DNA of 64,000 nt from Verrucomicrobiota bacterium (GCA_029573725.1 JAKQDQ010000042.1:777-64776); one strand, 5' to 3'; positions 34,597 to 64,000 are shown, counted from the first letter of the stretch. Notes: generated from the sequence alone by a model not told the origin. Program-made: numbers and translations.

Positions 34597-34621
34597 TGGT
34601 CGGGGCGGTGAGATTTGAATC
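34597..34621 (-). other. tRNA 3'-end fragment (tRNA-Pro-like), putative att site of the adjacent element
   Basis: The minus strand reads GATTCAAATCTCACCGCCCCGACCA: a T-loop (TTCAAAT), the 3' T-stem, the 3' acceptor strand CGCCCCG, discriminator A and CCA. A T-run follows. No complementary 5' acceptor strand (CGGGGCG), D arm or anticodon arm lies upstream, so it is a fragment and not a gene. Confidence 0.6.
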
Positions 34622-34744
34622 TAAAACGGTATTTTCGGCGTTGTTCGGTCAAACCGTGCTCCAAGCCCATTTTTATTGGGTGATTTTACGCTTTCGGCTT
34701 TTCCCGCTCCCGTCGTCCGACCACCCCAAAACGCAATCGGCGCG

Positions 34745-35449
34745 TTAGGAATTGTTAGGAGTCTTGCCGTCTCGCAACTTCGCCAGCGCCGATTCAATCC
34801 GATCATCCACGCCGTTCTTATCCGCATCTACCATTCCCCGCAACTGACCGTGACGATGCGCCAGAAACCAACCACCGACAGCCAACGCAACGCCACCCAA
34901 AATCAGTAATTCGTTGCCCACAATCATGCTTGGCAAAACCATGAGTGTCAAACCACCAACGACGAGCGCGGCGCTTGTCGTCACGCTGCCAATAAGCAGC
35001 TTGAGCGGCGGATAGAAAATGGATGCCAGGCCGAACGCGAATATGGCGGCGCCCACCCACACAATTCCCTTGAGGCTCGCCAGTTTCGCGCCGATTTCAC
35101 GGGCGGTGTCTTTCTGGGCCGCGCCGAGTTCCGTCTTGGCCCGCGTCTCCTCGCGCTCGACAACGGGCATCGGCGCGCTCACGACCACAGCCGCGGCGTT
35201 CGTCGCGCCGGATTCCAGCCGTGACCCAGTCGGCACGGTGTAGCTCCGCGTGCGCACCGTCTCCTGATCCTGACGCGACACGGCCGCTGGGTTGTCCGAT
35301 TGCACGACGGTTTGCTCAATGCCCTGAGTAGGTTTGCTCAATGTCGTGGCCTTGCCGCCCTTGAGCGGACCAGTGCCGGCGCAACCGCACAACAGGCCAA
35401 CAGATGCCCTCACGGCAAAATCAATCAGGGTGAAATTCAGTCGTTTCAT
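34745..35449 (-). CDS. hypothetical lipoprotein/membrane protein (last gene of the element)
   Basis: Start MKRLNFTL...VGLLCGCAG (lipobox-like) and three C-terminal TM helices. No family recognised. Confidence 0.45.
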   Translation of the reverse strand: MKRLNFTLIDFAVRASVGLLCGCAGTGPLKGGKATTLSKPTQGIEQTVVQSDNPAAVSRQDQETVRTRSYTVPTGSRLESGATNAAAVVVSAPMPVVEREETRAKTELGAAQKDTAREIGAKLASLKGIVWVGAAIFAFGLASIFYPPLKLLIGSVTTSAALVVGGLTLMVLPSMIVGNELLILGGVALAVGGWFLAHRHGQLRGMVDADKNGVDDRIESALAKLRDGKTPNNS

Positions 35450-35468
35450 GCTTCTTGGTGGCCGTCCG

Positions 35469-35774
35469 CTAGGACCTTTCCTGGAATCGCCGCAGTTCAA
35501 ACGCGCACTCGTTCAATGCGGCGGTATTGTGATCAATGCACACCGCCAGCTTCAGTGACGTCTCACTTTGCTTCTCGATGATTTGGGCGAGGGCGTGGTG
35601 ATGCGCCTCCCGCAGTTCCTTGTGATCGGCGAGGACGCTTTGGAGTTGCCGAACGAGCCAGTAAATGACGATGCCGCCACCGACCAGCAACAGGCAGAAC
35701 GCCGCCAGGAACAACCAGCGATCATTCATGGTGGCGGCATGATCCACGGCCTTGATCATTTCATTCGCATTCAT
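35469..35774 (-). CDS. small single-TM protein (holin/spanin-like topology)
   Basis: 101 aa (MNANEMIK...) with one TM helix (WLFLAAFCLLLVGGGIVIYWLV) and a helical tail. The function is unproven. Confidence 0.4.
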   Translation of the reverse strand: MNANEMIKAVDHAATMNDRWLFLAAFCLLLVGGGIVIYWLVRQLQSVLADHKELREAHHHALAQIIEKQSETSLKLAVCIDHNTAALNECAFELRRFQERS

Positions 35775-36241
35775 GGTTGCCTCACTTGTTGCACGCGTTC
35801 GATTAACAGCCGGCGCGTCGTGAAAAACTCCATCGCCTTCGTCGCCCGCACGAGCGTCGGCTCCCCCGGCCAGCTCGCCCAGTGCACCAGATTCGTGCTG
35901 CGCTCGAGGACCGGTGTCAGTCGCACCCAGGTTTCGCTCTGCACAACCGGTGCGACGGGTTTCGCCTCCCACTCCACCACGTTGCTGAAATCTGATGCGA
36001 TGCCGCTGCCATCCACGGCCGTTGCCGCGAAGCACCAGCGGCCCGGATGCGGTAACACCACCGCTTGCGTCAGCGTCAAACCCGCGTTGGTCACGAAGCA
36101 GTAATTCGCGCCGTTCGTACCGAAATGAATCCGGTAGCTGACGACGCCCGGCGATGGCGACGCATCCCACACGAGCGTGACCGACTGCGCGTGGACCATC
36201 AGCGCACAAGCCAGAATCAAACTTGTGAACAATGGCTTCAT
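35771..36241 (-). CDS. secreted FN3/Ig-like domain protein
   Basis: Signal peptide MKPLFTSLILACALMVHAQS followed by an FN3-like pattern (LVWDASPSPGVVSYRIHFG...). Confidence 0.5.
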   Translation of the reverse strand: MKPLFTSLILACALMVHAQSVTLVWDASPSPGVVSYRIHFGTNGANYCFVTNAGLTLTQAVVLPHPGRWCFAATAVDGSGIASDFSNVVEWEAKPVAPVVQSETWVRLTPVLERSTNLVHWASWPGEPTLVRATKAMEFFTTRRLLIERVQQVRQP

Positions 36242-36756
36242 GTTCTCGTGAGCTGCACCGCGCCGCTCCGGCTCTTCAGGAGCGCGCCGTATTTCGCCAG
36301 GTGCGCCTGGACCAGACGCGGGATAACCGGCGGCGTGTCGTTCTTGTCGTAACCCGTCTGTTCCGTGCCGGTGTTGTGATACTTCAGCCCTTCACCGGCC
36401 GGCGCCGCCGTGCGATCCGCCACGAGGAGTTCCCGCGCCATCTCGCACGTTGCTTCGATGACCGCCTTCGGCACAGAGTCAGCGGGAAGCTCGTCTTCAG
36501 AATCTGGGAGGCGACACCGTCGCCGCGGCCATTGCCGCGCTTGTGCCTCGTCCGCCTTCACGCCGTTGAACTGGTATTGCCCATCAATCAGCCACGTCGC
36601 CATCACGAGCGCCTTCTCCTTGTTGGCCAACGTCGCCGCGGTCCACGCGGAGGCATACAAGTGCCCGTCGTGATACGCGTCGCCATCCGCCGCGTTCGCG
36701 TAAGCGTTGGCATCCACCAGACCGGCTCCGGTTTCTTTGATGAGCGTCAGCGCCAT
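36238..36756 (-). CDS. putative head-tail adaptor (DnaT_2-like phage protein)
   Basis: The N-terminus MALTLIKETGAGLVDANAYANAADGDAYH matches the pattern I associate with phage DnaT-like/adaptor proteins. It sits just downstream of the capsid genes. Confidence 0.5.
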   Translation of the reverse strand: MALTLIKETGAGLVDANAYANAADGDAYHDGHLYASAWTAATLANKEKALVMATWLIDGQYQFNGVKADEAQARQWPRRRCRLPDSEDELPADSVPKAVIEATCEMARELLVADRTAAPAGEGLKYHNTGTEQTGYDKNDTPPVIPRLVQAHLAKYGALLKSRSGAVQLTRT

Positions 36757-36762: not shown

Positions 36763-37629
36763 TCACAGGTTTTGCACCAGCGCGAGCACGGCCTCTGAAA
36801 AACGCGTGCGCAGAAACGTCGCCCGCTCCGTCCACCACGTCGTCACGCCCGACAGATTCAATTCAATCGCCACGAAACTGCCGTCCGGCTGGCGCATCAA
36901 ATCCACACACACGTAGCCGAGCCCGACGTCCGTCATGCGCCGGCTCAGTTGGCGCAATGCCACCTTGTCGGCATCGGGAAATTCCAACAGCTCCCGATGC
37001 CGTTCGTCCGGTCGCTCCATCGGATCGCGATAGACGGCCAGCCGCCGGAAACCGTCGGCATCCAAGTCGCCCGCTAACAGTCGTTCGCCTAGCGGACGCT
37101 TTTTAAGCACGTAGGAAATCAGGATGCGACCGTTGAACAGTTCGACTTTGTAGGTGTTGCCGTCGTTCGGATTGACCTCGCGGCAGATGATGTCGCGCGC
37201 CAGATCCCAATCGCCGTAGCGCACTTGCCCCGGTGTCACGACATGAAAGCCCGCGCCACCCGCAGTGAACGACCGCTTCACGATCAACTTGTCCACGCCC
37301 CAGGTATCAAACAGTGCCAGCGCGGCGGACTTGCTGTTCACGGTCTGCCATTGCATGGTTGGAAAGCCCGCTTGATCCAGCGCGAGCAATTGCTCTGCGC
37401 GCGTCCAGCGGCGCCCGCCAAACGCTTTCCCGGGCAGTTGCTGCCGCACACTCGCCGGCAACTCGAAATGACTAAGCACCATGCCGTAGCCCGCGAGCTG
37501 CAATTCGGTCGGCCCGACGCCCCACACCACGTCCGCCTCATGCCCGTTGGCGCGCAGATGCGCCGCCACGGCTTCGTAGCGACTCAGCAACGACTCGCCG
37601 GCATTCCAGGTATGTAAGAGTGCTTTCAT
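36763..37629 (-). CDS. ATP-grasp domain protein (RimK/glutathione-synthetase-like ligase)
   Basis: LIVKRSFTAGGAGFHVV (ATP-binding Lys/Gly-rich loop), YKVELFNGRILISYV and YVCVDLMRQPDGSFVAIELN (Mg/ATP-binding E-x-N region), about 288 aa. Confidence 0.65.
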   Translation of the reverse strand: MKALLHTWNAGESLLSRYEAVAAHLRANGHEADVVWGVGPTELQLAGYGMVLSHFELPASVRQQLPGKAFGGRRWTRAEQLLALDQAGFPTMQWQTVNSKSAALALFDTWGVDKLIVKRSFTAGGAGFHVVTPGQVRYGDWDLARDIICREVNPNDGNTYKVELFNGRILISYVLKKRPLGERLLAGDLDADGFRRLAVYRDPMERPDERHRELLEFPDADKVALRQLSRRMTDVGLGYVCVDLMRQPDGSFVAIELNLSGVTTWWTERATFLRTRFSEAVLALVQNL

Positions 37630-37632: not shown

Positions 37633-38031
37633 TTAACCACCCAGCACGCTGCCCGCCGCTTGGTTGGACTGTGCCGACTCGCCGGCACCGTTATAGGCCA
37701 CCACGTAGTAGGTGTAAGGGATGCCCAGTTCCGCCGTCCAATCCACGAAGCTGGTTTGATTCGCGAACATCTGCGCCCGCAACGCGAACGCCTCGTTGAA
37801 TGGCTTGCGATACAGCCGAAACCCCGTCTCATTGGCGGACTGATCCGTCCACGAAAGCGCGATGTTGCCGAAGCCACTCACGGCAATCAGATTGATCGGC
37901 GCATTCGGCACGGGTGTCGGCTGCACCCGCGCGCGGCGCCGGTCCTGCAACCACGTCGCCAGCCAGCCGTGAAACCGCCGCGCAGGCGACCACGACCTAC
38001 CGTTCGCTCTGGTTTGAGGCAACTTGCGCAT
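37633..38031 (-). CDS. FN3-domain protein (possible capsid decoration protein)
   Basis: PNAPINLIAVSGFGNIALSWTDQSANETGFRLYRK...YTYYVVAYNGAGES is a canonical fibronectin type III pattern. The start is uncertain because the N-terminal 40 aa are Arg-rich. Confidence 0.5.
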   Translation of the reverse strand: MRKLPQTRANGRSWSPARRFHGWLATWLQDRRRARVQPTPVPNAPINLIAVSGFGNIALSWTDQSANETGFRLYRKPFNEAFALRAQMFANQTSFVDWTAELGIPYTYYVVAYNGAGESAQSNQAAGSVLGG

Positions 38032-38260: not shown

Positions 38261-39271
38261 TCAGTTGTTGTGATCCACCGCCACGATGCGGACGTTCTTG
38301 TTCTCGAACACCCGCGTCCAGTTGGCGGCATTCTCCAGTTCCGCGTTGGTCGGGCTCGTGCCCGCCACCGCCGCGGAATTGAACTTCACGCCTCGCGGAT
38401 GCAGGATGAAGCGACGCCGGTTGATGAAGTTCGTGTCGCTGTCCAACGCGGCTCGCGCCCACTCGACCCCTTCCGTGCCGTGCCCGCCCATCAGCGGTTC
38501 ACCCGCCAGCGGCGCCGCGCCACGGGCGAATGCGCCCGGCCCGAACAGGTAGCTGGTGTAAACCTGACCATCGGTCGTGCCGTTACGCACGGGCAGACCA
38601 TCGTCCACGATGACGCGCCGGCCCTGGAAGGTCTTGATCTGCGCTTTCCCCTCGCTGTCGGGGATGAAGTCAATCAAGTCCAGTTTGCGCAGCGCCGCTT
38701 CGGTGCCCGAGTGCATCGCCACTGCCGTGAGACGGTCGCCCCGGTCGCCGAGCTTCACCGTCGCATCCACGAAGGTGGCGCCGTTGAGCCGCGTCGCGGA
38801 CGACTGGCCCGCGATGCTTTCACTCGCGATGGACAACTTGTTGCCCGCCATCGTCGCCGAGGCGAACAGGCCCTTGAGGCTGGAAACGATCAGGCCCTGG
38901 TCCACCCGAATCCAGTAGTCGCCCACCAGCTCCACCAACGCGCCCATCGGATCATCACCGGAAAGCACCTTGGCCAGGTCATTCACGCTCCACGCATTCG
39001 CGTCCATCTGGATGCGCGCAATGTCCTTGCTCGCGGTGATCTTGTTCACCGTGAGCGGCGCATTGTCAGCCAGAATCTGGCGCGTCGGATTCACATCCTG
39101 CCAGAACGGCATGTCCACCGTGTTCCCACCACCAGCGGCCAGCGCGTCAAAGAACGGGTCGCTCTCGACGATGCCACTCGCACCGAACGCCGACAGGGTC
39201 GCCGTGCGCTCGATCACGTATTTCTCAAACACACTCGGAACAATCACGTCCGAGATTGCCGTCTTAGCCAT
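38261..39271 (-). CDS. major capsid protein
   Basis: 336 aa, immediately after the scaffold gene. The N-terminus MAKTAISDVIVPSVFEKYV and the MPFWQD motif resemble phage coat proteins. Size and position fit an HK97-fold MCP. Confidence 0.75.
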   Translation of the reverse strand: MAKTAISDVIVPSVFEKYVIERTATLSAFGASGIVESDPFFDALAAGGGNTVDMPFWQDVNPTRQILADNAPLTVNKITASKDIARIQMDANAWSVNDLAKVLSGDDPMGALVELVGDYWIRVDQGLIVSSLKGLFASATMAGNKLSIASESIAGQSSATRLNGATFVDATVKLGDRGDRLTAVAMHSGTEAALRKLDLIDFIPDSEGKAQIKTFQGRRVIVDDGLPVRNGTTDGQVYTSYLFGPGAFARGAAPLAGEPLMGGHGTEGVEWARAALDSDTNFINRRRFILHPRGVKFNSAAVAGTSPTNAELENAANWTRVFENKNVRIVAVDHNN

Positions 39272-39326: not shown

Positions 39327-40076
39327 TCAAGCCGTCGCCTTCAGGCGTGCGGCCAGTTGCGGGTCGGATTTCTCAATCTTCATTTGCTCCGTCACGTTCC
39401 ACGTCTCCTTGCGGAAGGGATTACGCACGGACCGGTGGCCAGCCCCACCGGAGCCAGAGCCGGCGGCACCGCCACCAGCGTTTGCTTCGAACAAGTGCGG
39501 CGCGTCGGACACCAACGCCTCCACCCATTCAGCCAAAGTCATCGGCGACACCCCGTCCTTGCCGGTGCGCATCCGCTCGCCGTCGAAAGCTTGGGGAACT
39601 CCGTCCACCAGCTTGAACGTCATTCGCGCTCGCGACGTGATGTCAGGAATTGCGGTCGCCCGCAGCCCGCGTTTCGTCGCCTCGTTCACGACCGCTTGAT
39701 CAATTTGAATCGCTGTCAAACGACCATGCAGGGCATCACGCTCGGCGACCACGACCCTGTGTTGCTTGTCCCAATCCGCGCGGGCCGTCCTGAGCCGGGC
39801 CTCAATCACCTTGTCCACTTCGCCCGCCTTGATCTGCGCCGCTTCCTCCAGCTGGCGCTTCTCCTCGGTAAGCTGCCGCACGGCATCCGGATCAATGCCC
39901 TCAAAGCGTTTCAACTGATTCGCCAGCGCGATGTTGTTCTGCCGAAACTCCTCGTGTTTCGCCCGGTCCACCACGCCTTCCGCATCCAGGACAAACGCGC
40001 CATCGCGCTCGACGTAAAAGCCCGCTTGTTCCGCCGGGATTTCCTCCCGCTTCCCGTATTTGTATTTCAGTGCCAT
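39327..40076 (-). CDS. phage scaffolding protein
   Basis: 249 aa, charged and helical (coiled-coil EEKRQLEEAAQIKAGE...), with a Gly-rich linker and a basic C-terminus. It lies between the portal-proximal gene and the MCP. Confidence 0.65.
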   Translation of the reverse strand: MALKYKYGKREEIPAEQAGFYVERDGAFVLDAEGVVDRAKHEEFRQNNIALANQLKRFEGIDPDAVRQLTEEKRQLEEAAQIKAGEVDKVIEARLRTARADWDKQHRVVVAERDALHGRLTAIQIDQAVVNEATKRGLRATAIPDITSRARMTFKLVDGVPQAFDGERMRTGKDGVSPMTLAEWVEALVSDAPHLFEANAGGGAAGSGSGGAGHRSVRNPFRKETWNVTEQMKIEKSDPQLAARLKATA

Positions 40077-40149: not shown

Positions 40150-40731
40150 TCACAACTCCACCTGAATCCGCCCTTGCATCATCACCCCCGGACTCAGTTG
40201 GCCTTCCACGTAGTGATGCACGCGCAGCCAGATGAACGTGTCCACCGGCCATTCGCCTCCCTCGCCCGGACCATCCCACGACCCGTGCACGGCTGCATAC
40301 GCCGTCCCAATCGACGGCGTTAAATCACCCATCACCAGCGTTCCCGGCGTCATCACCGCGATGAAGCGCAGCCATCCATGCGCGTTCACCTCCTCCGCGC
40401 CCAACGGTCGCGTCGCCCACACCAACCACTTCACGCCCGGCCCAAAGTTGTCCTCCGCCCGAAAACCCACGAACCCGGCGTTCTCCGTAAACGGCCCGGC
40501 ATCGCGCAGCGATAAACCGCCATCCGACCACGTTGCCTCTCCGGGCAGCACCGCCGGATTCGCCGCGTCACCCGCGAGCGCCCGGTTGCGCAACACCCTC
40601 GTCATCGCCTTGCGCCCGCTCACGCGCCGCACCGTGCCATCAGCCAGCAGCACCGGATTGTTCTTCGCCCACGCGCTCCACGCCCGACGTTGCGTTTGCG
40701 TCAGGGACTTCCATTCCTTCGCCGCTTTCAT
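40150..40731 (-). CDS. hypothetical head-module protein
   Basis: The start MKAAKEW overlaps the portal stop (ATGA). 193 aa, no motif recognised. Confidence 0.45.
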   Translation of the reverse strand: MKAAKEWKSLTQTQRRAWSAWAKNNPVLLADGTVRRVSGRKAMTRVLRNRALAGDAANPAVLPGEATWSDGGLSLRDAGPFTENAGFVGFRAEDNFGPGVKWLVWATRPLGAEEVNAHGWLRFIAVMTPGTLVMGDLTPSIGTAYAAVHGSWDGPGEGGEWPVDTFIWLRVHHYVEGQLSPGVMMQGRIQVEL

Positions 40732-42218: not shown

Positions 42219-42404
42219 GGCTCACCCGCATGTCATCTGCGCCTCACGAACCATCACGAACCCCACCCCTCTTGCCACGAACACACCCGAACTATTTTTT
42301 GTGGATTCCCCCTTGACGGTTTTCACAACCACGACGCGACACAACTTGCGAACGCCGCAATGTCCGTTGGCGGGCAGCGGCGTTCTCCCGTGTCTCCACT
42401 CCGT

Positions 42405-54585: not shown

Positions 54586-54846
54586 TTAAATCCCCGTGCG
54601 CGGACGAACGACACCGCGCCGGCAGACTTTGAAATTCGATTTCAGGTGTTCGATGACCTCCGGCCAGTGGAACAAAACGACAGAGGAAATTTTGATGAAG
54701 GGCAGGAATCCCTCGCGTTGCCAGTTCTCGACGGTTCGCACCGTCACCTTGAGCTTCGCGGCGAGTTCCTTCTTGGTGAGCATTTCGTCGCGTGGATCAG
54801 CCGGCAACGGCGCGGACGTGGTTGAGATTTGTGTGTTGTTGCTCAT
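54586..54846 (-). CDS. AlpA/excisionase-family HTH protein (HTH_17)
   Basis: LTKKELAAKLKVTVRTVENWQREGFLPFIK is the typical MerR-superfamily excisionase/AlpA helix-turn-helix. Confidence 0.7.
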   Translation of the reverse strand: MSNNTQISTTSAPLPADPRDEMLTKKELAAKLKVTVRTVENWQREGFLPFIKISSVVLFHWPEVIEHLKSNFKVCRRGVVRPRTGI

Positions 54847-54863
54847 GCGTCGCTCCTGGGGAA

Positions 54864-55058
54864 TCAGCAGTCGAAGATTTCAAACGTGGGTTTGCCGAGC
54901 GCATCGGCGATGCGCTGCTTGAGCCTGGCATCCGGCGCGATGCGTCCGGTTTCGACGCGAGAGATTTCGATCTCCCTTGTTCCGACTCGGTCGGCGAGTT
55001 GAAGCTGGGTTAAGCCCTTCAACACCCGCGCCGCCTTCATTCGATGATTCACAGTCAT
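54864..55058 (-). CDS. XRE-family (Cro/CI-type) HTH regulator
   Basis: 64 aa with KAARVLKGLTQLQLADRVGTREIEISRVETG, a canonical HTH_3 pattern. Confidence 0.75.
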   Translation of the reverse strand: MTVNHRMKAARVLKGLTQLQLADRVGTREIEISRVETGRIAPDARLKQRIADALGKPTFEIFDC

Positions 55059-55127
55059 TTCCGGTTTGTTGGTTACGGTGGCGAACCGCTCGTCACGTCT
55101 CTTTTCCCCGGAAATCGCGGAATCAGG

Positions 55128-55161
55128 GCATGAAAATGGGGTTAGCAGTCACGCTAACCCC
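55128..55161 (-). terminator. putative terminator separating the WYL-linked genes from the XRE operon
   Basis: GGGGTTAGC (55138-55146) pairs with GCTAACCCC (55153-55161). On the minus strand ATTTTCAT follows. Confidence 0.45.
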
Positions 55162-55205
55162 TGTGCGGGAATGAATTGTGAGAAATCAGGAAATCGCGGA
55201 GGAAA

Positions 55206-56378
55206 TCACGAAACGGCGGCACGCAGCGCGTCGGCAAGATTGGAACACTGTGCCTCCCAATTTTCAGGATCGAGCATTTCTAATTCTTCGACGGCGTCGC
55301 GGATCAGCGATGGGAAATCCACCTCGCGTTCCGCGCCGGAGGCGAGCCGCTTGGCAAACTCGACGCCGGCCTGCCCCTTGATGGCTTTTCGCCAGCGCAC
55401 GAACTCGGCGAGCGCGACATACTCCTTCCCGCGTTTGCGCCACGCCGCAACCTTGGTGCGCAACGTGGAATCTTTCATGTCCAGATCGCGGCTGGCTTTG
55501 GCGACATCCCCACTGGCGAGAATCGCCAGGAACAAATCGCGCGCCTCGCGGTCAATCTTCGCCGCGAAGCCGAACAGTCCGTCGCCGTGCATCTGTTCGA
55601 TGCGCGCCTTGGCCGCGCTCAAATCCAGCTTTTGTTTCGCCACCAGTTCCATGTGCCGGTCAATCCGTTCCACGGTCTTGACCAGTCCCGGCCCGGAGGC
55701 CAGCCGTTGATCAAACGCGGCGAGCACAGCATCAATTTGCTCGTGCAACGTGAACGCGCCCGCGCCGGAAACCGCCAGCCATCGGGACAGGCCAAGCAAA
55801 AGAAAACCGTGGCGCACTTGCATCGCGCCGACAGTTTTCGAGTGATGCGCTTCCGTCGGCGTCAGCAGAACGAACGGCCCGCCCACACTTGCGACCAGTT
55901 GTTCCGACTCACCCGCCAGCGCCGCCGCATCGTGCGGAAGATGAAGAAACACTGGCAGCTTCGCCGCGCCTCGCGCCGCGATGCGCGTGGATTGCTCGCC
56001 GTTGGCACTTCCAACCGGCGACTGGAATTTCAAGGCGCGTCGCACCGCTTCGCCGAGTTTCACCACATCCACCGCCCACACGAGAACGTCGGTCGGTTGG
56101 AGTTCAATGGGTTCGCAGCTCCCGCCATCGCACTCGCACACGGCGGCCAGACGGTCGGGCGCGTGCATCACCACTCGATGCCGGCAATCGCAGGGAAACC
56201 GGTTCGTGCAGGGATGACTTGAGCTTTGCTCGCCGTTCGGATTCAGGAAAACACGCGCCGCGTCAAACTCGCTGCCGAGTTCGCGCCGCCATTCCGCCAG
56301 CACTGCTGCCGCAGTGGGCAGGGCTTCAAGACTTGTCCACAATCCCGGTTTCCGTTTCATCTGTTTCGTTGTCGTCAT
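55206..56378 (-). CDS. hypothetical protein with Cys cluster and C-terminal Fis-like HTH
   Basis: About 380-390 aa. It has HPCTNRFPCDCRH...CECDGGSC cysteines and an HTH-like segment near the C-terminus, GDVAKASRDLDMKDSTLRTKV. Its start overlaps the upstream gene by 15-53 nt. Confidence 0.5.
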   Translation of the reverse strand: MTTTKQMKRKPGLWTSLEALPTAAAVLAEWRRELGSEFDAARVFLNPNGEQSSSHPCTNRFPCDCRHRVVMHAPDRLAAVCECDGGSCEPIELQPTDVLVWAVDVVKLGEAVRRALKFQSPVGSANGEQSTRIAARGAAKLPVFLHLPHDAAALAGESEQLVASVGGPFVLLTPTEAHHSKTVGAMQVRHGFLLLGLSRWLAVSGAGAFTLHEQIDAVLAAFDQRLASGPGLVKTVERIDRHMELVAKQKLDLSAAKARIEQMHGDGLFGFAAKIDREARDLFLAILASGDVAKASRDLDMKDSTLRTKVAAWRKRGKEYVALAEFVRWRKAIKGQAGVEFAKRLASGAEREVDFPSLIRDAVEELEMLDPENWEAQCSNLADALRAAVS

Positions 56379-57522
56379 CTTCGCCGATGAAGCCGCGTTC
56401 TTTCAGCCAGTTTTCGATGATGATGCCATCGTCATCGCGTCCGTATTGCGCCTTGTTCGATGGAATGATCGTCACGCGGCGGGGTTTCTTTGATCCGGCG
56501 AATTTGATTTCAAACGTCGCCCGCTTGATGCGTTCCGGGTCTTCCGGCCAGAACAACTTTTCCTTTTCCACCAGCCCGTAGATGTCATCCGAGGCGCGCG
56601 TCACCCGCTGCCACGGTTTGCCGCCGAACAGGAATTGCACTTCCTTGAGCGTGACGCTCTCCATCCCCTCGATGTCCAGGCACGCAAGACAGCCCCGCCC
56701 CATGAGCAGCGGCTTGAGCCGGTATTTGCCCGTGCCCGGAAAAAATTCCTCCTTGCCGAACAGATGCAAGCCAAATGCCTTTCGGAACAATTCCAGTTCC
56801 CGCTTGCCGCAGCAATTCATACGGAGTTCGCCTTGCATCGTGTCATACACCACCACGTCATGCTTCTGCGGGCGGTAAAACACGCTCGACGATTCGCCTT
56901 CCACCATCGCGCTTTCTCGCTTGCATGGCAGACCGTGCCGCACCAGAAACCAACACTCGCCTTCCTTGGGAAATGGAATGACTTTGCATCCGCGCCCGCG
57001 CTTGCTTTTGGCATACCAGTCATCCAGCCGCGCTTCCAGCGCCTCAATTTGCTCCTTGCCCGGCGGCGTGAACTTGGGCGGCTCATCTCCCTCGCAGACG
57101 AAGTATTCAAACGAACGCGGGCGCGTGAGTTGATGTTCGTTGTGAAGTTCTTCGAGCAGCAGCCGGTTCAGCAGCAGGGTTTGCACAGCCACGTCCGCCG
57201 GCGACGGCTTGTCACCAACCTCCAGCGTGAACTTGCGTGGCCCTTGCGCTTCCAGAATCGCTTCCATCGCTTCATCTGTCGCCATTTCGTTCACGAGGTT
57301 GAGCGATTCCACGAGGTCGCGGGGCATGTCGGGATCGGGGTCGAGAAACACCGCCGCCAGCTTTTCCAAATCCACCGGCCCATCGGCGACGTCGGCGGGC
57401 AGCGTCACGCCGCGCGTGGCGAGGTATTCCTTTGCTGGCGTCAGCCATGTCACCAGACTGGCGGGCCGGATTTTTCCCAAGATGTCAGGATTAGTGAAGC
57501 GTCGGGTGTTCAGGTTTGGCAT
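56326..57522 (-). CDS. hypothetical protein (no recognisable family)
   Basis: 398 aa, clean non-degenerate sequence with an acidic tail. It is the first gene downstream of the WYL regulator on the same strand. Confidence 0.55.
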   Translation of the reverse strand: MPNLNTRRFTNPDILGKIRPASLVTWLTPAKEYLATRGVTLPADVADGPVDLEKLAAVFLDPDPDMPRDLVESLNLVNEMATDEAMEAILEAQGPRKFTLEVGDKPSPADVAVQTLLLNRLLLEELHNEHQLTRPRSFEYFVCEGDEPPKFTPPGKEQIEALEARLDDWYAKSKRGRGCKVIPFPKEGECWFLVRHGLPCKRESAMVEGESSSVFYRPQKHDVVVYDTMQGELRMNCCGKRELELFRKAFGLHLFGKEEFFPGTGKYRLKPLLMGRGCLACLDIEGMESVTLKEVQFLFGGKPWQRVTRASDDIYGLVEKEKLFWPEDPERIKRATFEIKFAGSKKPRRVTIIPSNKAQYGRDDDGIIIENWLKERGFIGEDDDNETDETETGIVDKS

Positions 57523-57652
57523 GTTTGTTTGGTCGGTTGCTTTCTGATTTCTTCAATCGTTCACCCCGCAGGATAGCCGGAGGGGTCTGCCAAATGCTGT
57601 CAGACCCCACGAAATAAATCAGAAAGTTGTCCTCCGTCTTTTCACGGCCAGT

Positions 57653-58666
57653 TCACCTGTCCTGCCTCATCTTCGCGTATCGCTGGTTCAATTCCGCCGT
57701 GACCTTCTCTATACGCGCGACCAGCGTTTGCGGTGCGATGACGGTCGCGTGCGTGCCCCAGCTTAACGCCCAGCGCTCCACTTCCTCGACGTTGTTCAGC
57801 CGCATCCGCAGCCTCATTTCTCCACCGGGCAGTTCGTCCACCGTCTGACTCCAATGCCAGCGCCGACCGCGCAGCAGGTCTGCCGACCATGAATCAAATT
57901 CGATGACGACTTCAAATTCATCATCCGGCTTCCCGGTGAACACGCTGAACGACCCGCGCAAGTGCCGGTCGAGATTGAAGTCCTTCGGCGCGGGAAATTT
58001 CTCATCCGTCACTTCCAGCGTCTTCATGCGTGTCAGCACAAACCCCCGGATGGCCTGCCGCGCCAGGTCATGCGCGAACAGATACCAGCGGTTGTCCACG
58101 CACGCGACGTGGTAGGGGCGCACGCTGCGACGCTCCGGCTTTTGCGCCCCCAGCTTGCGGTATTGAAACCGCACAACCCGCCGCTCCCGCACCGCCTTGA
58201 GCAATCCCTGAAAAATTTCCAGATCGGTTTCCTCCGGCGCGAACGGACGGAATGAAAACGCCCCGTCTAGCCCGCCAAAGCTGAATGACGATTCCTTGTC
58301 TAGTTGCCCCGTCAGTTTGCGGAAAGAACCTTCCAGCAGATGTTCAAACGGCGTTCCTTGATACTGGACAATCGCCTTGTGCGCCACCATCAGCGCGAAC
58401 AAATCCGCTTCCGTCACCGGCACGGATGGAAACCGGTCCACTTTTTCTGAATAGAAATATCCGTAGCGTTTCTGGTGATATTCGATCGGCAGGTTCAACC
58501 GGCACTTCATGAAATCAATGTCGCGCTTGATGGTTCGCGACGACACTTCCGTTGCCTCCGCCAGCGAGGAACAGTTCGGGAAAGCCTCGCCCTGCAATTT
58601 TTCATGGATTAACAGCATCCGCTCCAATGGCGGCCTCGAATGGAGTTGTTCGCTGACTTTTGGCAT
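57653..58666 (-). CDS. HTH-WYL-WCX transcriptional regulator (BrxR/CapW-like architecture)
   Basis: N-terminal wHTH (LAEATEVSSRTIKRDIDFM), a central WYL domain (VRFQYRK...RSVRPYHVACVDNRWYLFAHD) and a C-terminal WCX-like extension. The start is at 58666. Confidence 0.85.
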   Translation of the reverse strand: MPKVSEQLHSRPPLERMLLIHEKLQGEAFPNCSSLAEATEVSSRTIKRDIDFMKCRLNLPIEYHQKRYGYFYSEKVDRFPSVPVTEADLFALMVAHKAIVQYQGTPFEHLLEGSFRKLTGQLDKESSFSFGGLDGAFSFRPFAPEETDLEIFQGLLKAVRERRVVRFQYRKLGAQKPERRSVRPYHVACVDNRWYLFAHDLARQAIRGFVLTRMKTLEVTDEKFPAPKDFNLDRHLRGSFSVFTGKPDDEFEVVIEFDSWSADLLRGRRWHWSQTVDELPGGEMRLRMRLNNVEEVERWALSWGTHATVIAPQTLVARIEKVTAELNQRYAKMRQDR

Positions 58667-58739
58667 GGCGTGAAGATTTTTCAAAATTCTGCTCCCCGGT
58701 GACAATGGATGTCAAACCCCCTTCTGTTAAGATGGGTGC

Positions 58740-60035
58740 ATGAATTTGAACCTTCATCGCGTTCAACCCATGGCAATTCCCTTGAAACTTGACCATTTTC
58801 GGCTTCGGCGGCAATCGCAGTTGGAACAGGAACTTGCCAGCCGCCCGCTGTTCAAAAAGGTGGACGGCATGGCGGGCAAGGAATGGCGGATCAGCCAGTT
58901 GAAGCAGATTGTCAGCGGCAACCTGTTCGTGCCCGAAGGCACGATTCCCCTTTTGGACGCGGCGGTGTTGCGCATGAAGACAGTCATGCGCTTGTCGTAT
59001 CCCGTTCGAGTCTTTCTGCGACCCGATTCAGGCAACGTAACCGCCTGCCTTGCGTTTCTGGGCGCGGACACTTTGAACATTGCCGTCGCCCCCGGCCTGA
59101 TTCGGGGCGATTCGCCAGCCGCGCTTGCCTACCACTTGGCGACCGCCGCGTTCCACGGTTTGCAGCACTACCCGCAATACCTTGGGCTGTTGCTCACGCT
59201 GCGTGCGCCATTCGATTTGGAAGGCCGGCTCAAGGCGTATGAGATTTTGCGGCTCAACCGCTACGCCGCGAATTGTTTCGCGGTCGTTTGTTGTGACAGC
59301 CTGGAGATTGCCACCCGGCACGGCTTTTCAAGGGTCACCGGCATCCCGGTCACCGGAAGCAAACCGGCTTTGAATCTCGACGTTCTCGCCGGGCACGCGA
59401 TTCAGAACACCGCGTTGAACGGCGGCAATGTGCTCGACGACTATTCGCCGTTGGATCACTACGAACCGATTCTGCCCCTTGTGCTCCGCCGCTTCTTGGA
59501 GAGCGAACCGTATCGCGCCTGTCGCGGGGAAAGCGGAGGGACGCCCCGCGACCAGTTCGAGGCCGAGATTTTGGAACTCGACCGCCAGGCGTATCCGCTC
59601 ACGGAAACCATCCCCAAAATCCATGGCGAATTTGCGGCGATTGCGTCGTTGCTGGCCGCGCATTGGGTGATGGAATCGTGCGGGCCGGTGACGCAGCGGC
59701 GCGAGGAAATCCTGCTTGAGTCATTCGAGTTGGAGCGGAAGCAGCTCGACGAAATCGCCGCACAAACCGGCTGGCGGCGCGAAGGCGAAACCAGCACGAA
59801 GCAGCTTCTCGACGCGCTGTCCGGTGGCCGCGATTGGAAAAACATTCATTGCGTCCAAATAATCCGCACCGCGTTCCTGATTGCCGCCGAGGAACACCAG
59901 GGCAAGCTGCCCGACAAGGTGAAGGCGGCGTTTGTCGAAATCGGTCGGATATGCCGCCTTGAGCCGAACGAATGTAGCGCCGTGTGCGAAGTCTTGATGG
60001 AGGAGGCAATCAAGAAATCAGGCCAGACCGAATGA
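58740..60035 (+). CDS. hypothetical protein, divergent from the WYL regulator
   Basis: 431 aa (alternative start at 58770). Helical, no catalytic motif recognised. It is the first gene of the plus-strand defence-type operon. Confidence 0.5.
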   Translation: MNLNLHRVQPMAIPLKLDHFRLRRQSQLEQELASRPLFKKVDGMAGKEWRISQLKQIVSGNLFVPEGTIPLLDAAVLRMKTVMRLSYPVRVFLRPDSGNVTACLAFLGADTLNIAVAPGLIRGDSPAALAYHLATAAFHGLQHYPQYLGLLLTLRAPFDLEGRLKAYEILRLNRYAANCFAVVCCDSLEIATRHGFSRVTGIPVTGSKPALNLDVLAGHAIQNTALNGGNVLDDYSPLDHYEPILPLVLRRFLESEPYRACRGESGGTPRDQFEAEILELDRQAYPLTETIPKIHGEFAAIASLLAAHWVMESCGPVTQRREEILLESFELERKQLDEIAAQTGWRREGETSTKQLLDALSGGRDWKNIHCVQIIRTAFLIAAEEHQGKLPDKVKAAFVEIGRICRLEPNECSAVCEVLMEEAIKKSGQTE

Positions 60036-60211
60036 AACACAGGTGCGTCAACATTCCCAGAAACGACTGCTCTCCGGTGAATCCGCTGGGACGCGAACTC
60101 GCGACGCGGACACGCTGGCAGCCCGTCATGTTGACGCCGCCGATCCAGATTACATTTGTCAGTTTTCCGTGCCGCGATTATCATACACGACAAAGTCAGT
60201 CAGTTCATTCG

Positions 60212-61518
60212 ATGAACCGGATCAGTTTCTTAGACCTCTTTTGCGGATGCGGTGGGTTCAGCCTCGGAATGGAGCGGGCTGGACTTTACTGTTTGGCAGC
60301 CATTGATTTCAACCCGGAAGCCGTCGCTGTCTTCAAAGCCAATTTCCCGCATGTAACACAGGCATTGGAGCGCGACCTCACCGCTTTCTCTCCACGCGAA
60401 CTGGCGAGCTTGATTGAAACCGAAACCGTGGACGTGATTGTTGGAGGCCCGCCCTGTCAGGGATTTTCCACGGTGCGGCAGCGTGATGGCGCAAACAGTG
60501 GGCCGCGCATGGTTGAGGACAAGCGACGCCATTTGTATCAGGAATTTTTGCGCTACGTTGAATTCTTCCGACCGAAGGTGTTCGTGATGGAAAACGTGTT
60601 GGGAATCAAGTCGGCAGCCGGCGGCAAATATTTTACGCGCGTGCAGAAGGAGGCGCGAGCCATCGGCTACCGCGTCCACTCCCAGGTTGAAAAGGCGATT
60701 GAATTGGGCGTGCCGCAAAAACGCCAGCGTCAGTTGATCGTCGGCACTCGCCTTGACCTGCCCGACTATTTCCCCGGCCAGTTGAAGCCCGCACCTCGCG
60801 CTGTCGAAAAGCCGACGCTCGGCGAGGCGATTTGCGACCTTCCCCCCGTTCGTGCGGGCGGTGGCGAGGAAGAAACCGACTACGACATGCCCGGCGCATG
60901 GCCTATGTCGCCAAATATGGTCGACGTTATCTCTACGAGACGCTTGAAGTCCAACGGGCGTCGAAATTGACGGCACATCGCGCGCGCCCGCACAGCGAAC
61001 GTGATCTGCGCGATTTTGCCCGGTTGCACGAAGGCGAACACTGCGCCGAGGCGATGAAGCGCGGCGAGAAATTCGAGTTCCCCTACGACAAGGAGACGTT
61101 CAAGGATCGCTATACCCGCCAACATCGCAACGAAGCCTGCTCCACCATCGTCGCGCATTTGAGCAAGGACGGACTGATGTTCATCCATCCGACACAAAAC
61201 CGCTCGCTCACGCCGCGCGAGGCTGCCCGTGTGCAGAGTTTCCCTGACTGGTTTCAATTTCCGGTTGCCCGCACTCATCAATTCCGCGTCATTGGCAATG
61301 CAGTCCCGCCATTGGTTGCGGAGGCCATCGGATACGTCGCGAAATCCTACCTGGAGAAAACTATGAAAACACAAAAAGCAGTCCATTTCGGTTTGTCGCC
61401 GCTACCGTCCAGCCAGAAGGAAGCTGTCCAATGGCTTCTCGGCTTGGTGACGCGGCAGAGGGCAAAGCATTACAGCAATTGTCAGCCGCCGATTTTAAGC
61501 GTGGCTGGTATTCCGTAG
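60212..61518 (+). pseudogene. DNA (cytosine-5)-methyltransferase, split by a frameshift near 60880-60905
   Basis: Motifs I (DLFCGCGGFSLG), IV (GGPPCQGFS), VI (ENV) and VIII (QKRQR) are in the frame of ORF 59984..60970. Motifs IX and X (LTPREAARVQSFPDWFQF, GNAVPPLVAEAIG) are in the frame of ORF 60832..61518. The two frames overlap over 60832-60970. Confidence 0.75.
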
Positions 61519-61783
61519 GGTTTTTGTATCCCGGCCTCCACCCGGACAGCGCACTTGAGCACGGAAAGGAGTTGTGCAACGACGCCGAAGATTTTCCCGA
61601 AGTCCGCAAAGTTGAACCGCGTTTGCTCGCGCCATACTACGTTGACAGCGGTTGGCCTCGCCGTCCTCGCGTTGCTCCTGTTAATTTTCTGCCCTCGCCG
61701 CTAGACTGCGTTGCATCCCGCTCCACTCTACGTGCATCCATTTGGGATGGCGCAAACGACGTTTTCTTTGCATCATGCGCGCC

Positions 61784-63286
61784 ATGTCGCGCACTTCGTC
61801 CTCAGAATACGAGACAGTTCCACCCGAGCCAGCCGCGCTCGTGGAATCGCTGCGCGCGTTTGGATACGAACTTTCAACAGCCTTGGCCGACCTTGCCGAT
61901 AACAGCCTTTTCCACCATTCACGGCACATCACCGTTCATTTTCACTGGGCCGGGGAAAATTCTGCAATCGCCTTGGCGGATGACGGCGACGGGATGGACG
62001 AGCGCACATTGGTAAATGCGATGCGGCTTGGCAGCCGCAACCCACGCGCGCCGCGCGATCCAGGAGATTTTGGGCGGTTCGGTTTGGGGCTGAAGACCGC
62101 CTCGTTTTCCCAATGTCGCCGCGTGACGGTTTTCACGAAGCAGCACCGTAAGGAAACCCTGATTCGTTGCTGGGACTTGGATCACGTTGCCGAAACCGGC
62201 GAATGGCAACTGCTTCGAACTTCGTCGGCGCTTGCCGCGAGGCTGGCAGAAAAACTCGCCGATACGAAGCAGGGCACAGTTGTCATTTGGGAAAAACTGG
62301 ATCGGCTGACTGCCGACACCAAGACCGAGAACGATGCCGACGAGGATGCCTTCTTACGACGCGCGGAACAGGTCGGCGACCATTTCTCGGCAGTCTTCCA
62401 CCGTTTCATGAATGGAAATCGTGCTGTCGCTTTCTCCCTGAACGGCACAGCCATCCAGCCTTGGGATCCGTTCCTTGTTGATGAAGCCGCCACCCAGCGG
62501 CTTCCATTGGAGCGCCTTCGTTTTCAGGGGCATGTCGTCGAGGTCGAGCCGTTCATCCTTCCGCATCTTTCCAAGCTGGATATTTCCGCTCATCGCACCG
62601 CTGCAGGCTTGCGCGGATGGAACGCACACCAGGGATTTTACATTTACCGCAATCGCCGCCTGCTTGTTCCCGGTGACTGGCTCGGCATCAAAGGCTGGCG
62701 TCAGGAGGAACATTACAAGCTCGCCCGCATCCAGGTTGATTTGCCTAACGCACTCGATCACGAATGGGAAATTGACGTGACTAAATCGCGTGCAAGGCCG
62801 CCTGAAAAACTTCGGCGTGAACTCGTTCGCATCGGTGAAAGCACACGCAGCGTGGCAAAGCGTGTTTACTCGCATCGTGGCGCGAAGCTCGTTCCCGCCG
62901 AGGGACAGGAGCGCGTGTTCCTTTGGGAACAGACGGCGAAGCACAACCAGGTGTCCTACCGCGTCAACCGCGATCACCCACTGGTGAAACAAGTTCGCGC
63001 GGCTTGTTCCGACGCGCCGAAGTTCAGCGCGCTGATCCGGCTCATTGAGGAAACGATTCCCGTTCCACTCATCACCATCACGGATCGGGAAAAGCCAGAC
63101 CAGACCATCGGCCCGTTTGAAACCTCGAAAGAGTCGGAAATTCTTGAAGTCATGCGGCAGGTATTCGCCTCGCTCCGCGCCAGCGGACTGTCGCGCAGGG
63201 AAGCCTTGTTGCGCCTTGCCCACTTCGAGCCGTTTCCGCGCTTTCCAGAATTGCTCCAAACCATCCAGGAGGAAGATGAACCATGA
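61784..63286 (+). CDS. GHKL (HATPase_c_3) MORC-like ATPase
   Basis: N-box LADLADNS, G1 box DDGDGM and G2 box GRFGLGLKTAS of the Bergerat fold. About 500 aa. The start is at 61784 or 61775. Confidence 0.75.
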   Translation: MSRTSSSEYETVPPEPAALVESLRAFGYELSTALADLADNSLFHHSRHITVHFHWAGENSAIALADDGDGMDERTLVNAMRLGSRNPRAPRDPGDFGRFGLGLKTASFSQCRRVTVFTKQHRKETLIRCWDLDHVAETGEWQLLRTSSALAARLAEKLADTKQGTVVIWEKLDRLTADTKTENDADEDAFLRRAEQVGDHFSAVFHRFMNGNRAVAFSLNGTAIQPWDPFLVDEAATQRLPLERLRFQGHVVEVEPFILPHLSKLDISAHRTAAGLRGWNAHQGFYIYRNRRLLVPGDWLGIKGWRQEEHYKLARIQVDLPNALDHEWEIDVTKSRARPPEKLRRELVRIGESTRSVAKRVYSHRGAKLVPAEGQERVFLWEQTAKHNQVSYRVNRDHPLVKQVRAACSDAPKFSALIRLIEETIPVPLITITDREKPDQTIGPFETSKESEILEVMRQVFASLRASGLSRREALLRLAHFEPFPRFPELLQTIQEEDEP

Positions 63287-64000
63287 GTGATGCTTTCAGT
63301 AAAGCCCGCGCGATTGCCGTGACGCTCTTAAACACCGAGCCGTTGCGGACGCCGGAGGTGATTCACGCCCAGGTTCAGAAGGCCATCTCCATCATCCCCG
63401 GCCTGACGGCGGAAGATGGCGAGGCACTTGTCGCCCAACTGATGCACGAGGCCAATGTCTTTGTGCCTGATGCAACCTTGATGGATGACCCAACCGACCA
63501 CATCGAATGGCTTCCAACCAAGCGCGCGGTGATTCAGGAAAAGCAGGGCTGGAAATTTTGGAATCGCTACAAGGAATTTCTGGAAAAGGACAAGAAGCTT
63601 CCCGAACCGGTCGTGAGCGCCCTTGGAAAACTCACCGATGATATTCTCGGCAAGCTCGAAGACCCCGAACGAACACCGTCATGGGATTGTCGCGGCATGG
63701 TTGTCGGCAGCGTGCAGTCTGGCAAGACCGCCAACTACTGCGGCCTCATCTGCAAGGCGATTGACTCCGGCTATCGGCTGGTCGTGGTGCTCGCCGGGAT
63801 GCACAACAATCTTCGCAGCCAGACGCAATACCGTCTCGACGAAGGCGTGCTTGGGCGCGACAGCCAGAAAGACCGCCAGCTTGACCAGACGACAAGTTTG
63901 ATTGGCGTCGGAAAACTTTTCGGCCAGTTGCTACCCGTTCACACACTCACAAGCAGTCTGGACGATGGCGACTTTCGCGCGCCCAAGGCCGACACAGGCG
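63283..64000 (+). CDS. Z1 domain protein (3' end lies outside the window)
   Basis: The ATG overlaps the upstream stop (ATGA). GSVQSGKTANYCGLICKAIDSGYRLVVVLAGMHNNLRSQTQYRLDEG is the characteristic Z1 P-loop region. The frame stays open to the window end and is not in the supplied ORF track because it has no stop. Confidence 0.8.
   Translation, partial: MSDAFSKARAIAVTLLNTEPLRTPEVIHAQVQKAISIIPGLTAEDGEALVAQLMHEANVFVPDATLMDDPTDHIEWLPTKRAVIQEKQGWKFWNRYKEFLEKDKKLPEPVVSALGKLTDDILGKLEDPERTPSWDCRGMVVGSVQSGKTANYCGLICKAIDSGYRLVVVLAGMHNNLRSQTQYRLDEGVLGRDSQKDRQLDQTTSLIGVGKLFGQLLPVHTLTSSLDDGDFRAPKADTG

Follow-up and report, generated by a model that had tools for sequence, protein, structure and literature searches.

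A tail-less, capsid-forming integrative element with an SPP1-type head in a Verrucomicrobiota genome, a probable phage satellite

Background

The DNA analysed here is a stretch of 64,000 nucleotides from a Verrucomicrobiota bacterium (GCA_029573725.1, JAKQDQ010000042.1:777-64776; below, “the window”), with a G+C content of about 62%, whose right-hand part carries an integrative element that encodes the head of a phage and no recognisable tail. The first 34.2 kb of the window are ordinary chromosome, with genes for dihydroorotase, RuvA, a class II ribonucleotide reductase, a tricorn protease, phosphofructokinase (PFK) and a zinc peptidase. [quoted passage not shown] Verrucomicrobiota are common in soil and water, and we know of almost no characterised phages of this phylum.

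The results presented below make it likely that the element belongs to an abundant family of integrative, capsid-forming, tail-less elements which function as phage satellites; the family is found mostly in metagenome bins of Verrucomicrobiota, the source of most of the loci detected with its capsid protein.

Results

Borders of the element and its integration site

The features of the element are collected in Table 1. On the plus strand from 34597 the window reads TGGTCGGGGCGGTGAGATTTGAA, which occurs in it once; read on the other strand, it gives the T-arm, acceptor stem and CCA end of a tRNA. General RNA searches do not identify this fragment: according to ARAGORN the window has no intact tRNA, Rfam yields no match at gathering score anywhere in the window, and around the border Rfam does not recognise the tRNA fragment even at E ≤ 10. 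Its identity rests instead on an intact tRNA in a public JGI contig (L008; here and below, L numbers denote loci and contigs outside the window), which was located by an exact match to the product of the last gene that is complete in the window, a 503-aa HATPase_c_3 protein. This contig is 100% identical to positions 51775-64000 of the window, extends 9.3 kb further and carries an intact tRNA-Pro(CGG), to whose 3' end the fragment is identical, which confirms the tRNA-fragment border that had been predicted.

The 3' end of the intact tRNA is overlapped by an exact second copy of a 38-nt direct repeat, TTTCCGAAGAAAAAATGGTCGGGGCGGTGAGATTTGAA, at 21421-21458 of L008 (equivalent to window positions 73195-73232), the first copy of which forms the left attachment (att) site; a direct-repeat search inside the window returns no second copy because that copy lies beyond it. 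From repeat to repeat the element measures 38,613 bp (38.6 kb). The predicted extent was thus right at the left border, where the repeat begins at 34582, but the element runs about 9.2 kb past the end of the window. The additional sequence consists of a defence part, with genes for MzaC (Z1, 969 aa), MzaD (DUF4420), MzaE (AIPR), a second C5 methylase (Dcm), a 123-aa open reading frame (ORF) and Vsr, followed by an end part, in which a 68-aa ORF and a 434-aa tyrosine integrase (Phage_integrase) precede the tRNA-Pro that the integrase adjoins at the far end of the element. The intact tRNA, the second att copy and the integrase that the original prediction had proposed to look for beyond 64 kb are all present on L008, and precomputed Pfam gene calls and PADLOC reveal no tail or lysis gene in the extension up to the second att site. 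The element is bounded as expected for insertion into a tRNA gene. The two outcomes that the original prediction had named as fatal to a satellite reading, tail genes among the small ORFs or just past the window and a missing second att copy, were thus both looked for and neither was encountered.

Table 1. Features of the element, with positions in the window, in order from the left border
Feature	Position	Strand	Evidence or remark
attL	34582..34619		38-nt direct repeat; from 34597, minus-strand 3' end of tRNA-Pro
Lipoprotein-like membrane protein, 234 aa	34745-35449	-	lipobox, about 3 transmembrane segments
101-aa protein, N-terminal transmembrane segment, helical C-terminal part	35469-35774	-	read from sequence
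Secreted 156-aa protein	35771-36241	-	signal peptide, fn3-like stretch (read from sequence)
Head-tail adaptor Ad1	36238-36756	-	phrog_477 E=2e-31; Pfam DnaT_2 E=1e-24
ATP-grasp-like protein, 288 aa, variable cargo	36763-37629	-	ATP-grasp peptide maturases, weak, E=3e-4
Variable head-accessory protein, 132 aa, fn3	37633-38031	-	fn3 match weak, E=0.005
Major capsid protein, SPP1 gp13-like	38261-39271	-	phrog_247 E=3e-93; Pfam Gp13-like
Head scaffolding protein	39327-40076	-	phrog_206 E=1e-36
193-aa orphan between portal and scaffold	40150-40731	-	no Pfam domain
Portal, DUF4055 type	40728-42218	-	phrog_145 E=7.5e-125; Pfam DUF4055 E=4e-37
Conserved non-coding DNA, about 2.6 kb	42219-42901 and 43454-45370		blocks A and B, 43690-45370
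Imperfect palindrome/hairpin, about 200 nt	42395-42612		about 180 nt upstream of portal start; minimum free energy -138 kcal/mol, z=-12
SRAP (SOS-response-associated peptidase)	42902-43453	+	Pfam SRAP E=3e-19; phrog_1599
Structured RNA-like motif R1, about 150 nt, rod-like hairpin	44201-44350	-	covariation
Plus-strand block: p192, small ORF, DUF6573, p111	45371-47057	+	pattern of G+C at third codon positions, codon-periodic substitutions
DUF6573	46214-46675	+	Pfam DUF6573 E=2e-17
Strong terminator-like hairpin	47131-47161		ends plus-strand block; terminator scan
Terminase large subunit TerL	47234-48631	-	phrog_2 E=8e-29; Pfam Terminase_6N
Terminase small subunit TerS	48628-49413	-	phrog_6299 E=5e-21; likely start 49224, 198 aa
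AAA_25 helicase	49379-50416	-	Pfam AAA_25 E=2e-31
Candidate primase ORF, Cys/His-rich N-terminal part	50418-51725	-	no profile match
95-aa protein	51814-52101	-	no HNH match
PD-(D/E)XK exonuclease	52125-52994	-	phrog_298 E=2e-21
NGO0469-family replication initiator	53121-53801	-	NF046043 E=2e-37, over its cut-off
RusA-like/PDDEXK resolvase	53732-54262	-	phrog_244 E=6e-20
Regulatory region	54586..58705	-	AlpA/excisionase-like HTH, XRE, two unassigned proteins, WYL
AlpA/excisionase-like HTH	54586-54846	-	HTH_17 E=4.9e-4, under Pfam cut-off
XRE regulator	54864-55058	-	Pfam HTH_3 E=8.5e-12
Two proteins next to WYL	55206-57522	-	no family match
WYL regulator	57653-58705	-	WYL and WCX domains (Pfam); PADLOC WYL E=5e-42
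Cargo region	58740-64000	+	431-aa protein, split C5 methylase, MzaB, start of MzaC
C5 DNA methylase, split in two ORFs	60032/60269-60970 and 60967-61518	+	Pfam DNA_methylase
MzaB, 503 aa, HATPase_c_3	61776-63286	+	PADLOC E=4e-109
MzaC (Z1)	from ~63283, past window end	+	PADLOC E=2e-181

Packaging and head module

The predicted minus-strand genes for TerS, TerL, portal, scaffold, major capsid protein and adaptor are all supported by PHROGs or Pfam profiles; the list was right as far as the head genes are concerned, but the module also contains the 193-aa orphan, the fn3 gene and the ATP-grasp-like gene. The capsid protein is 46% identical to gp13 of phage SPP1 over its full length, and Ad1 is the only neck protein encoded.

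The orphan has 144 homologues, and all of those with a source name come from Verrucomicrobiota. Its AlphaFold2 model, computed from a 32-sequence alignment (pLDDT 92.5, pTM 0.86), predicts that a helical N-terminal part leads into a beta-sandwich. Foldseek comparison of the model with the PDB and BFVD gives no significant match (best E 0.037 and 0.0095, respectively, at a TM-score of about 0.3), and what similarity there is concerns a generic beta-sandwich, with no match to a neck or tail protein. Sequence searches of the PDB with the orphan, the ATP-grasp-like protein and Ad1 find nothing significant.

Between the capsid gene and the adaptor gene the module is variable. A small ORF of 68 aa follows the capsid gene and precedes the gene of the head-accessory protein, whose N-terminal motif R.W..W.Q.RRR.R is joined in 10 relatives to unrelated C-terminal parts of 57-367 aa, which are of fn3 type here and of LamG or Ig-like type in other relatives (gene positions: L018 11217, L019 11275, L022 5510, L027 6557, L028 11431, L035 11504, L051 8654-9685); judged from these sequences, the protein looks like an exchangeable domain displayed on the capsid. 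The ATP-grasp-like gene, which lies between the head-accessory gene and the adaptor gene and whose profile match is far below the cut-off, is shared only with the relative L022 (80% identical).

End of the module

The original prediction was that only three short secreted or membrane ORFs remain after the adaptor, and that the window lacks tail, lysis and integrase genes; both statements hold when the window is searched with Pfam and PHROGs and its unassigned ORFs with NCBIfam. In these searches no ORF matches a tail tube, tape measure, sheath, baseplate or fibre protein, nor a stopper, prohead protease, HNH protein, holin or endolysin, and no integrase gene lies inside the window; neither the profiles nor the Foldseek search of the orphan reveal a cryptic tail or lysis function.

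The three proteins themselves are conserved, and PADLOC, NCBIfam, Pfam and PHROGs yield no match for any of them. The secreted 156-aa protein, which directly follows Ad1 and is not a head-closure protein because it has a signal peptide, is 47-71% identical in relatives and matches no family in Pfam, PHROGs or NCBIfam. The 101-aa membrane protein (49-66% identical in relatives, no family match in Pfam or PHROGs) might have a holin- or spanin-like role, which is only a guess. The 234-aa lipoprotein-like protein has no Pfam, PHROG or NCBIfam match either, is 64-88% identical in relatives with a ratio of nonsynonymous to synonymous substitution rates (dN/dS) of 0.09-0.20, and is the last gene before the att site or integrase in relatives. 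Together with the orphan, the 68-aa ORF, the fn3 protein and the ATP-grasp-like protein, these three make up the unassigned coding sequence of the morphogenesis region, a leftover capacity which, to judge from the ORFs, is too small for a tail.

Relatives and selection

Relatives were collected from scans of IMG/VR and of species-representative genomes with the capsid protein, with further loci from context look-ups; they were viewed within 10 kb of the query gene, and their synteny was taken from blastx and precomputed gene calls. The capsid scan produced 7 IMG/VR loci and 29 species-representative loci, and in 27 of the 29 the capsid protein is at least 64% identical. The original prediction had proposed to look for the element in related genomes and viromes, and at least 16 diverged relatives share the tail-less layout (L001/L002, L016, L018, L019, L021, L022, L025, L027, L028, L032, L035, L040, L051, L053/L054 and L055 among the loci), with head proteins 56-88% identical. 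Where the available sequence suffices, the common order is TerS, TerL, a reverse-strand block with non-coding DNA, portal, (orphan), scaffold, capsid, one or more variable genes and Ad1. After Ad1 most relatives have the same small envelope proteins, some of them only two, and L001/L002 and L040 have other cargo straight after Ad1; next come an excisionase-like gene and integrase, a tRNA gene (for Thr, Leu or Gly), or genes of the host or of defence systems, and in some relatives the integrase adjoins the end of the head module. This variety of tRNA sites and integrase placement is as expected of active mobile elements, and two or three distinct members of the family occur together in some metagenome bins.

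Codon alignments of the window with eight relatives give synonymous divergences (dS) of about 0.8-1.8, which is near saturation. TerL and portal have dN/dS values of 0.10-0.16, the capsid protein of 0.15-0.35, the scaffold of 0.09-0.27 and Ad1 of 0.15-0.33. Since purifying selection of this strength (0.09-0.35) is seen at near-saturated dS, the head and packaging genes have, on the evidence of these alignments, been kept functional over a long divergence within a tail-less lineage. At E ≤ 1e-10, Ad1 has 1,968 clusters of metagenome homologues (clustered at 90% identity), the best 120 of which are at least 69% identical.

Tailed counterparts of the head module also exist. The IMG/VR contig L006 has a capsid protein 60% and an adaptor 36% identical to those of the element, and in the contig L045, whose head genes are unrelated, the adaptor is 50% identical, nearly as close as the most distant adaptors of the family (56-57%). 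Directly after the adaptor these two contigs encode proteins of about 125, 123-128 and 136-142 aa, one of 384-385 aa, one or two small proteins and one of 777-824 aa, a series that in size and order is the standard siphovirus succession of neck, tube, chaperone and tape-measure genes. No homologues of the L006 tail proteins occur in the tail-less relatives.

Several observations on individual loci should be recorded separately. In L052 (6311-9515) three tyrosine recombinase genes and a fragment of IS66 interrupt the head module immediately upstream of the adaptor, and this locus is, from its gene content, a degraded member of the family. L015, L018, L019, L022, L029, L033 and L037 are binned as Bifidobacterium, Hyphomicrobiales or Dehalococcoidia, labels that probably stem from a mobile element having been mis-binned and not from its true hosts. 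Contigs of about 38.6-38.8 kb among the relatives were considered as a sign of a conserved element size, a reading that was dropped when L053 was seen to run on into host genes.

Plus-strand genes, non-coding DNA and an RNA motif between TerL and portal

The prediction that the genes from 58.7 kb down to 34.7 kb lie on the minus strand in the order of a temperate phage is broadly borne out by PHROGs and Pfam, but the interval from 42.2 to 47.2 kb is not minus-strand coding: its five genes (SRAP, p192, a small ORF, DUF6573 and p111) lie on the plus strand, and about 2.6 kb of it are non-coding. The SRAP gene, present in some relatives only, interrupts the non-coding DNA here. The other four genes form a block that is antisense to the packaging and head genes and is conserved in most relatives; L048 is without it and keeps the RNA motif described below. 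The C-terminal part of p111 is Cys-rich, and neither p111 nor p192 has a match in PADLOC, NCBIfam, Pfam or PHROGs.

The non-coding DNA is better conserved than the capsid gene, with 12.5% mismatches against L028 as opposed to 24.5%. A coding reading of 43.5-45.4 kb was ruled out, because substitutions fall evenly on the three codon positions (62/65/64) and most insertions and deletions are not multiples of three. Its blocks are arranged in the order A-B-SRAP-C here and in L018, and A-C-B in L001 and L040; the stretch could serve as a leader, as an origin or as a pac region.

Within it lies R1, a motif of 35 base pairs, 13 of which show compensatory changes. In the alignment 93.6% of the R1 cells are paired, compared with 83.9% in shuffled alignments (0 of 500 reach the observed value) and 33-42% when the pairing is slid. 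A covariance model scores in 13 family loci (L001, L002, L017-L020, L027, L028, L035, L040, L047, L048 and L051), 3 of which lie outside the set used to build the model; each has exactly one copy, always at the same relative position, and the tailed contigs have none. Rfam has no gathering-score match in the window at R1, and none at E ≤ 1 at that position in a search of 42200-45600. The G-U pairs suggest that R1 is transcribed from the strand of the head genes. A hammerhead ribozyme was considered for the CUGAnGAG...GAA stretch of R1 and rejected: the position after GAA varies and the Rfam hammerhead models are unmatched. Nearer to the portal gene, the core of the long hairpin (42471-42508, 38 nt) is 97-100% identical in the distant relatives L001 and L017. 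Because R1 and the hairpin lie upstream of the head operon and on its strand, R1, the conserved blocks and the hairpin could be a regulatory leader of that operon, which is speculation.

Two repeats were also noted: TGGTGGCCGTCCGCAAGGACCT recurs four times in the element (35456-35477, 44463-44484, 44539-44560 and 52895-52916), and the 33-nt GCAnGnTGGCCnGTGCGGCACGCACCAGCC occurs twice in the non-coding region, at a distance of 959 nt (44047-44079 and 45006-45038). Both could be regulator binding sites.

Regulation and replication genes

Among the remaining predicted genes, profile searches with Pfam and PHROGs bear out the WYL and XRE regulators, the PD-(D/E)XK exonuclease and the AAA_25 helicase, and specify the endonuclease as a RusA-like/PDDEXK resolvase. 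Two assignments did not stand: the supposed HNH gene (51814-52101) has no HNH match, and the supposed DUF669/SSB-like gene (53121-53801) belongs to the NGO0469 family of replication initiators. The primase is a candidate only, its ORF matching no profile in Pfam, PHROGs or NCBIfam; the primase-helicase family phrog_2597 (E=4e-55) covers the helicase part only. The AlpA-like gene is an intermediate case: similarity to HTH_17 and to PHROG excisionases and regulators is present, but it is weak (1e-4 to 1e-5 for the PHROGs). The two proteins adjacent to the WYL regulator match nothing in PADLOC, NCBIfam, Pfam or PHROGs.

Defence cargo

The interval from 58.7 to 64 kb belongs to the element as predicted, but its content is Mza defence cargo and not part of the head and replication order. 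Together with the sequence on L008 (11509-19858), the Mza, Dcm and Vsr genes amount to about 13 kb and comprise an operon of MzaB to MzaE with a cytosine methylase, flanked by the Dcm genes and Vsr; beyond the window, MzaD (PADLOC E=3e-29), MzaE (E=3e-91) and Vsr were matched too. A related Mza cluster follows the adaptor in the relative L040. The 431-aa protein at the start of the cargo has no match in PADLOC, NCBIfam, Pfam or PHROGs.

Discussion

A satellite that forms its own capsids

The prediction of a satellite with capsids of its own and tails taken from a helper is supported by the intact borders of the element, the lack of tail genes and the recurrence of the same design, from which dependence on a helper is inferred. 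Defence cargo is likewise typical of satellites (PMC10085698).

The life cycle that these genes suggest would begin with an induction step that the XRE, AlpA-like and WYL regulators presumably mediate and that a helper phage may signal, after which the element would excise and replicate. It would build full-size heads, probably of T=7 geometry, load its own DNA into them by headful packaging under the direction of its own TerS, and cap the portal with Ad1. A co-infecting or co-resident siphovirus would then supply the head-closure protein, the tail and cell lysis, and phages with a neck and tail module of the L006/L045 type would be the obvious candidates for the best helpers. The T=7 head of SPP1 holds about 45 kb, and a 38.6-kb element would therefore fit.

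Several considerations weigh against this interpretation. The helper phage and the encapsidation and transfer of the element's DNA are deduced from genes, and in most relatives the 10 kb viewed around the query gene cover the part upstream of TerS incompletely. SPP1-type heads retain DNA only once a stopper binds, and since the element encodes a single neck protein and no stopper, stable free capsids in the manner of the cf-PICIs are not assured. At 38.6 kb the element is the size of a phage, its set of replication and recombination genes is fuller than that of classical satellites, the AlpA-like assignment is weak, and the orphan, the three envelope proteins and the two WYL-adjacent proteins are conserved with no assigned function.

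Such conserved family-specific proteins would find a role if the element were a virus-like entity sufficient to itself, delivered without a tail or by an unrecognised apparatus made of the orphan and the display, secreted and membrane proteins. The confident fold of the orphan, which has no known structural relative, would suit this proposal, as would the variable fn3, LamG and Ig-like domains, which on their conserved N-terminal anchor resemble adhesion modules. We nevertheless consider it unlikely: little coding sequence in the morphogenesis region is unassigned, three of its products are predicted to be exported or membrane-bound, and the homologues of Ad1 include adaptors that dock to siphovirus necks of the canonical kind. 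Nor do we know of any tail-less bacterial virus with an HK97-fold capsid, a portal and a terminase.

The other reading originally proposed, that a siphovirus lost its tail and lysis module at this locus and persists as an inert remnant or is kept for its defence cargo, draws on the siphovirus-type head of the SPP1 kind, to which complete tailed phages with a 60% identical capsid protein correspond, on the phage-like size, and on the one methylase gene that is broken up into two ORFs. Loss in a single deletion with subsequent decay, however, predicts neither the tail-less layout shared by at least 16 diverged relatives, at different tRNA genes, nor head ORFs that are all intact and have dN/dS values of 0.09-0.35 at a dS of about 1, nor an intact integrase with both att sites, nor an adaptor with 1,968 homologue clusters. 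Because the layout recurs in so many relatives under purifying selection, a one-off defective prophage is quite improbable.

A domesticated particle system that resembles a gene transfer agent or otherwise serves the host, instead of a selfish satellite, would also have heads without tails and host-beneficial defence genes, yet is very improbable indeed, since such systems occupy a vertically inherited locus devoid of integrase, att sites and replication genes, and the element has all three as well as its own TerS, varies in cargo and integration site within its family, and may be present in several distinct copies per bin.

Comparison with known systems

Viewed as a capsid-forming satellite, the element invites comparison above all with the cf-PICIs EcCIEDL933 and KpCIDSM30104, with which it has in common an integrase with flanking att sites, regulators, a replication module of its own (here apparently the AAA_25 helicase and the NGO0469-family initiator), its own TerS, TerL, portal, capsid and adaptor, the absence of tail and lysis genes, and defence cargo, which cf-PICIs often carry (PMC10085698; 10.1101/2025.02.11.637232). 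The analogy drawn in the original prediction is therefore sound as to function, but several defining features of cf-PICIs are absent. The element measures 38.6 kb, against about 10-18 kb for cf-PICIs (10.1101/2025.02.11.637232); it has a scaffold (phrog_206) in place of a prohead protease; none of its ORFs contains an HNH domain according to Pfam, PHROGs and NCBIfam; and it has the adaptor but lacks a further neck protein (“connector”). Its capsid and portal fall into different Pfam families (Gp13-like and DUF4055), whereas cf-PICI trees use the HK97-type PF05065 capsid (PMC13230959). As to regulators of the AlpA, MerR or Stl type, the element offers the weak AlpA-like match beside clear XRE and WYL proteins. 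Its heads are probably of full size rather than small, its source is Verrucomicrobiota, and the non-coding region with the RNA motif between TerL and portal is specific to its family. The cfPICI model of SatelliteFinder needs at least 9 of 11 core profiles, and the element, its components judged by function, has at most 8 of the 11. It works like a cf-PICI and should not be filed as one, given its size, the lack of protease, HNH and connector, and the different capsid and portal families.

The cf-PISP, a capsid-forming design outside the classical islands, also makes its own heads and has no tail genes; it is episomal, measures 15.8 kb and carries plasmid maintenance genes and a head of cf-PICI type, whereas the present element is integrated at a tRNA gene, measures 38.6 kb and has unrelated head genes. 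SPP1-like siphoviruses (SPP1, Enterococcus phiFL3A, L006) have capsid proteins 46-60% identical to that of the element, the scaffold and Ad1 in common with it, and the same order TerS-TerL-portal-scaffold-capsid-adaptor, but in them the adaptor gene leads on to genes for the stopper, tail completion, tube, chaperones, tape measure and distal tail, at the point where the element family stops. A complete temperate siphovirus of this type would have genes for neck completion, the tube, the tape measure, the distal tail and lysis; these are missing from the element and equally from the 16 or more relatives, and are present in L006 and L045.

Large islands of the I55 type in Pseudomonas (20-70 kb) resemble the element in lying beside an RNA gene, in their tyrosine integrase and restriction-modification-type defence cargo, and in being thought to travel in phage particles; they have no capsid or packaging genes and use the heads of jumbo phages, whereas the element has its own head and terminase genes (PMC12772148). 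The Streptomyces satellites MiniFlayer and MulchRoom, which likewise occur outside Proteobacteria and Firmicutes and have encapsidation genes of their own, differ in gene content and in having been isolated as particles with known helpers (PMC10690885). The satellites of Verrucomicrobia hosts that have been reported from marine virus particles have no gene for a capsid protein (PMC9618062). A full-text literature search, the coverage of which is incomplete, found no published description of this element family.

A more far-reaching scenario is offered as a tentative possibility only: the family may represent a separate origin of capsid-forming satellites, from SPP1-like siphoviruses, keeping phage-sized genomes in full-size heads and trading tail and lysis functions for defence cargo, with R1, the conserved blocks and the 200-nt hairpin forming a leader that senses the helper and governs the head operon, and with exchangeable adhesion domains displayed on the capsids.

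Conclusions

If the element is a satellite of the kind proposed, the capsid-forming satellite strategy extends to Verrucomicrobiota, beyond the 10-18 kb islands of Proteobacteria and Firmicutes, and does so in another form, which is phage-sized and combines a scaffold-based SPP1-type head and a single neck protein with a large defence cargo. Given the nearly 2,000 homologue clusters of the adaptor, such elements may be widespread; software for virus prediction will probably take them for prophages or viral contigs, and IMG/VR already includes several relatives. Further targets for study that the family offers are an uncharacterised structured RNA and a number of conserved orphan proteins.

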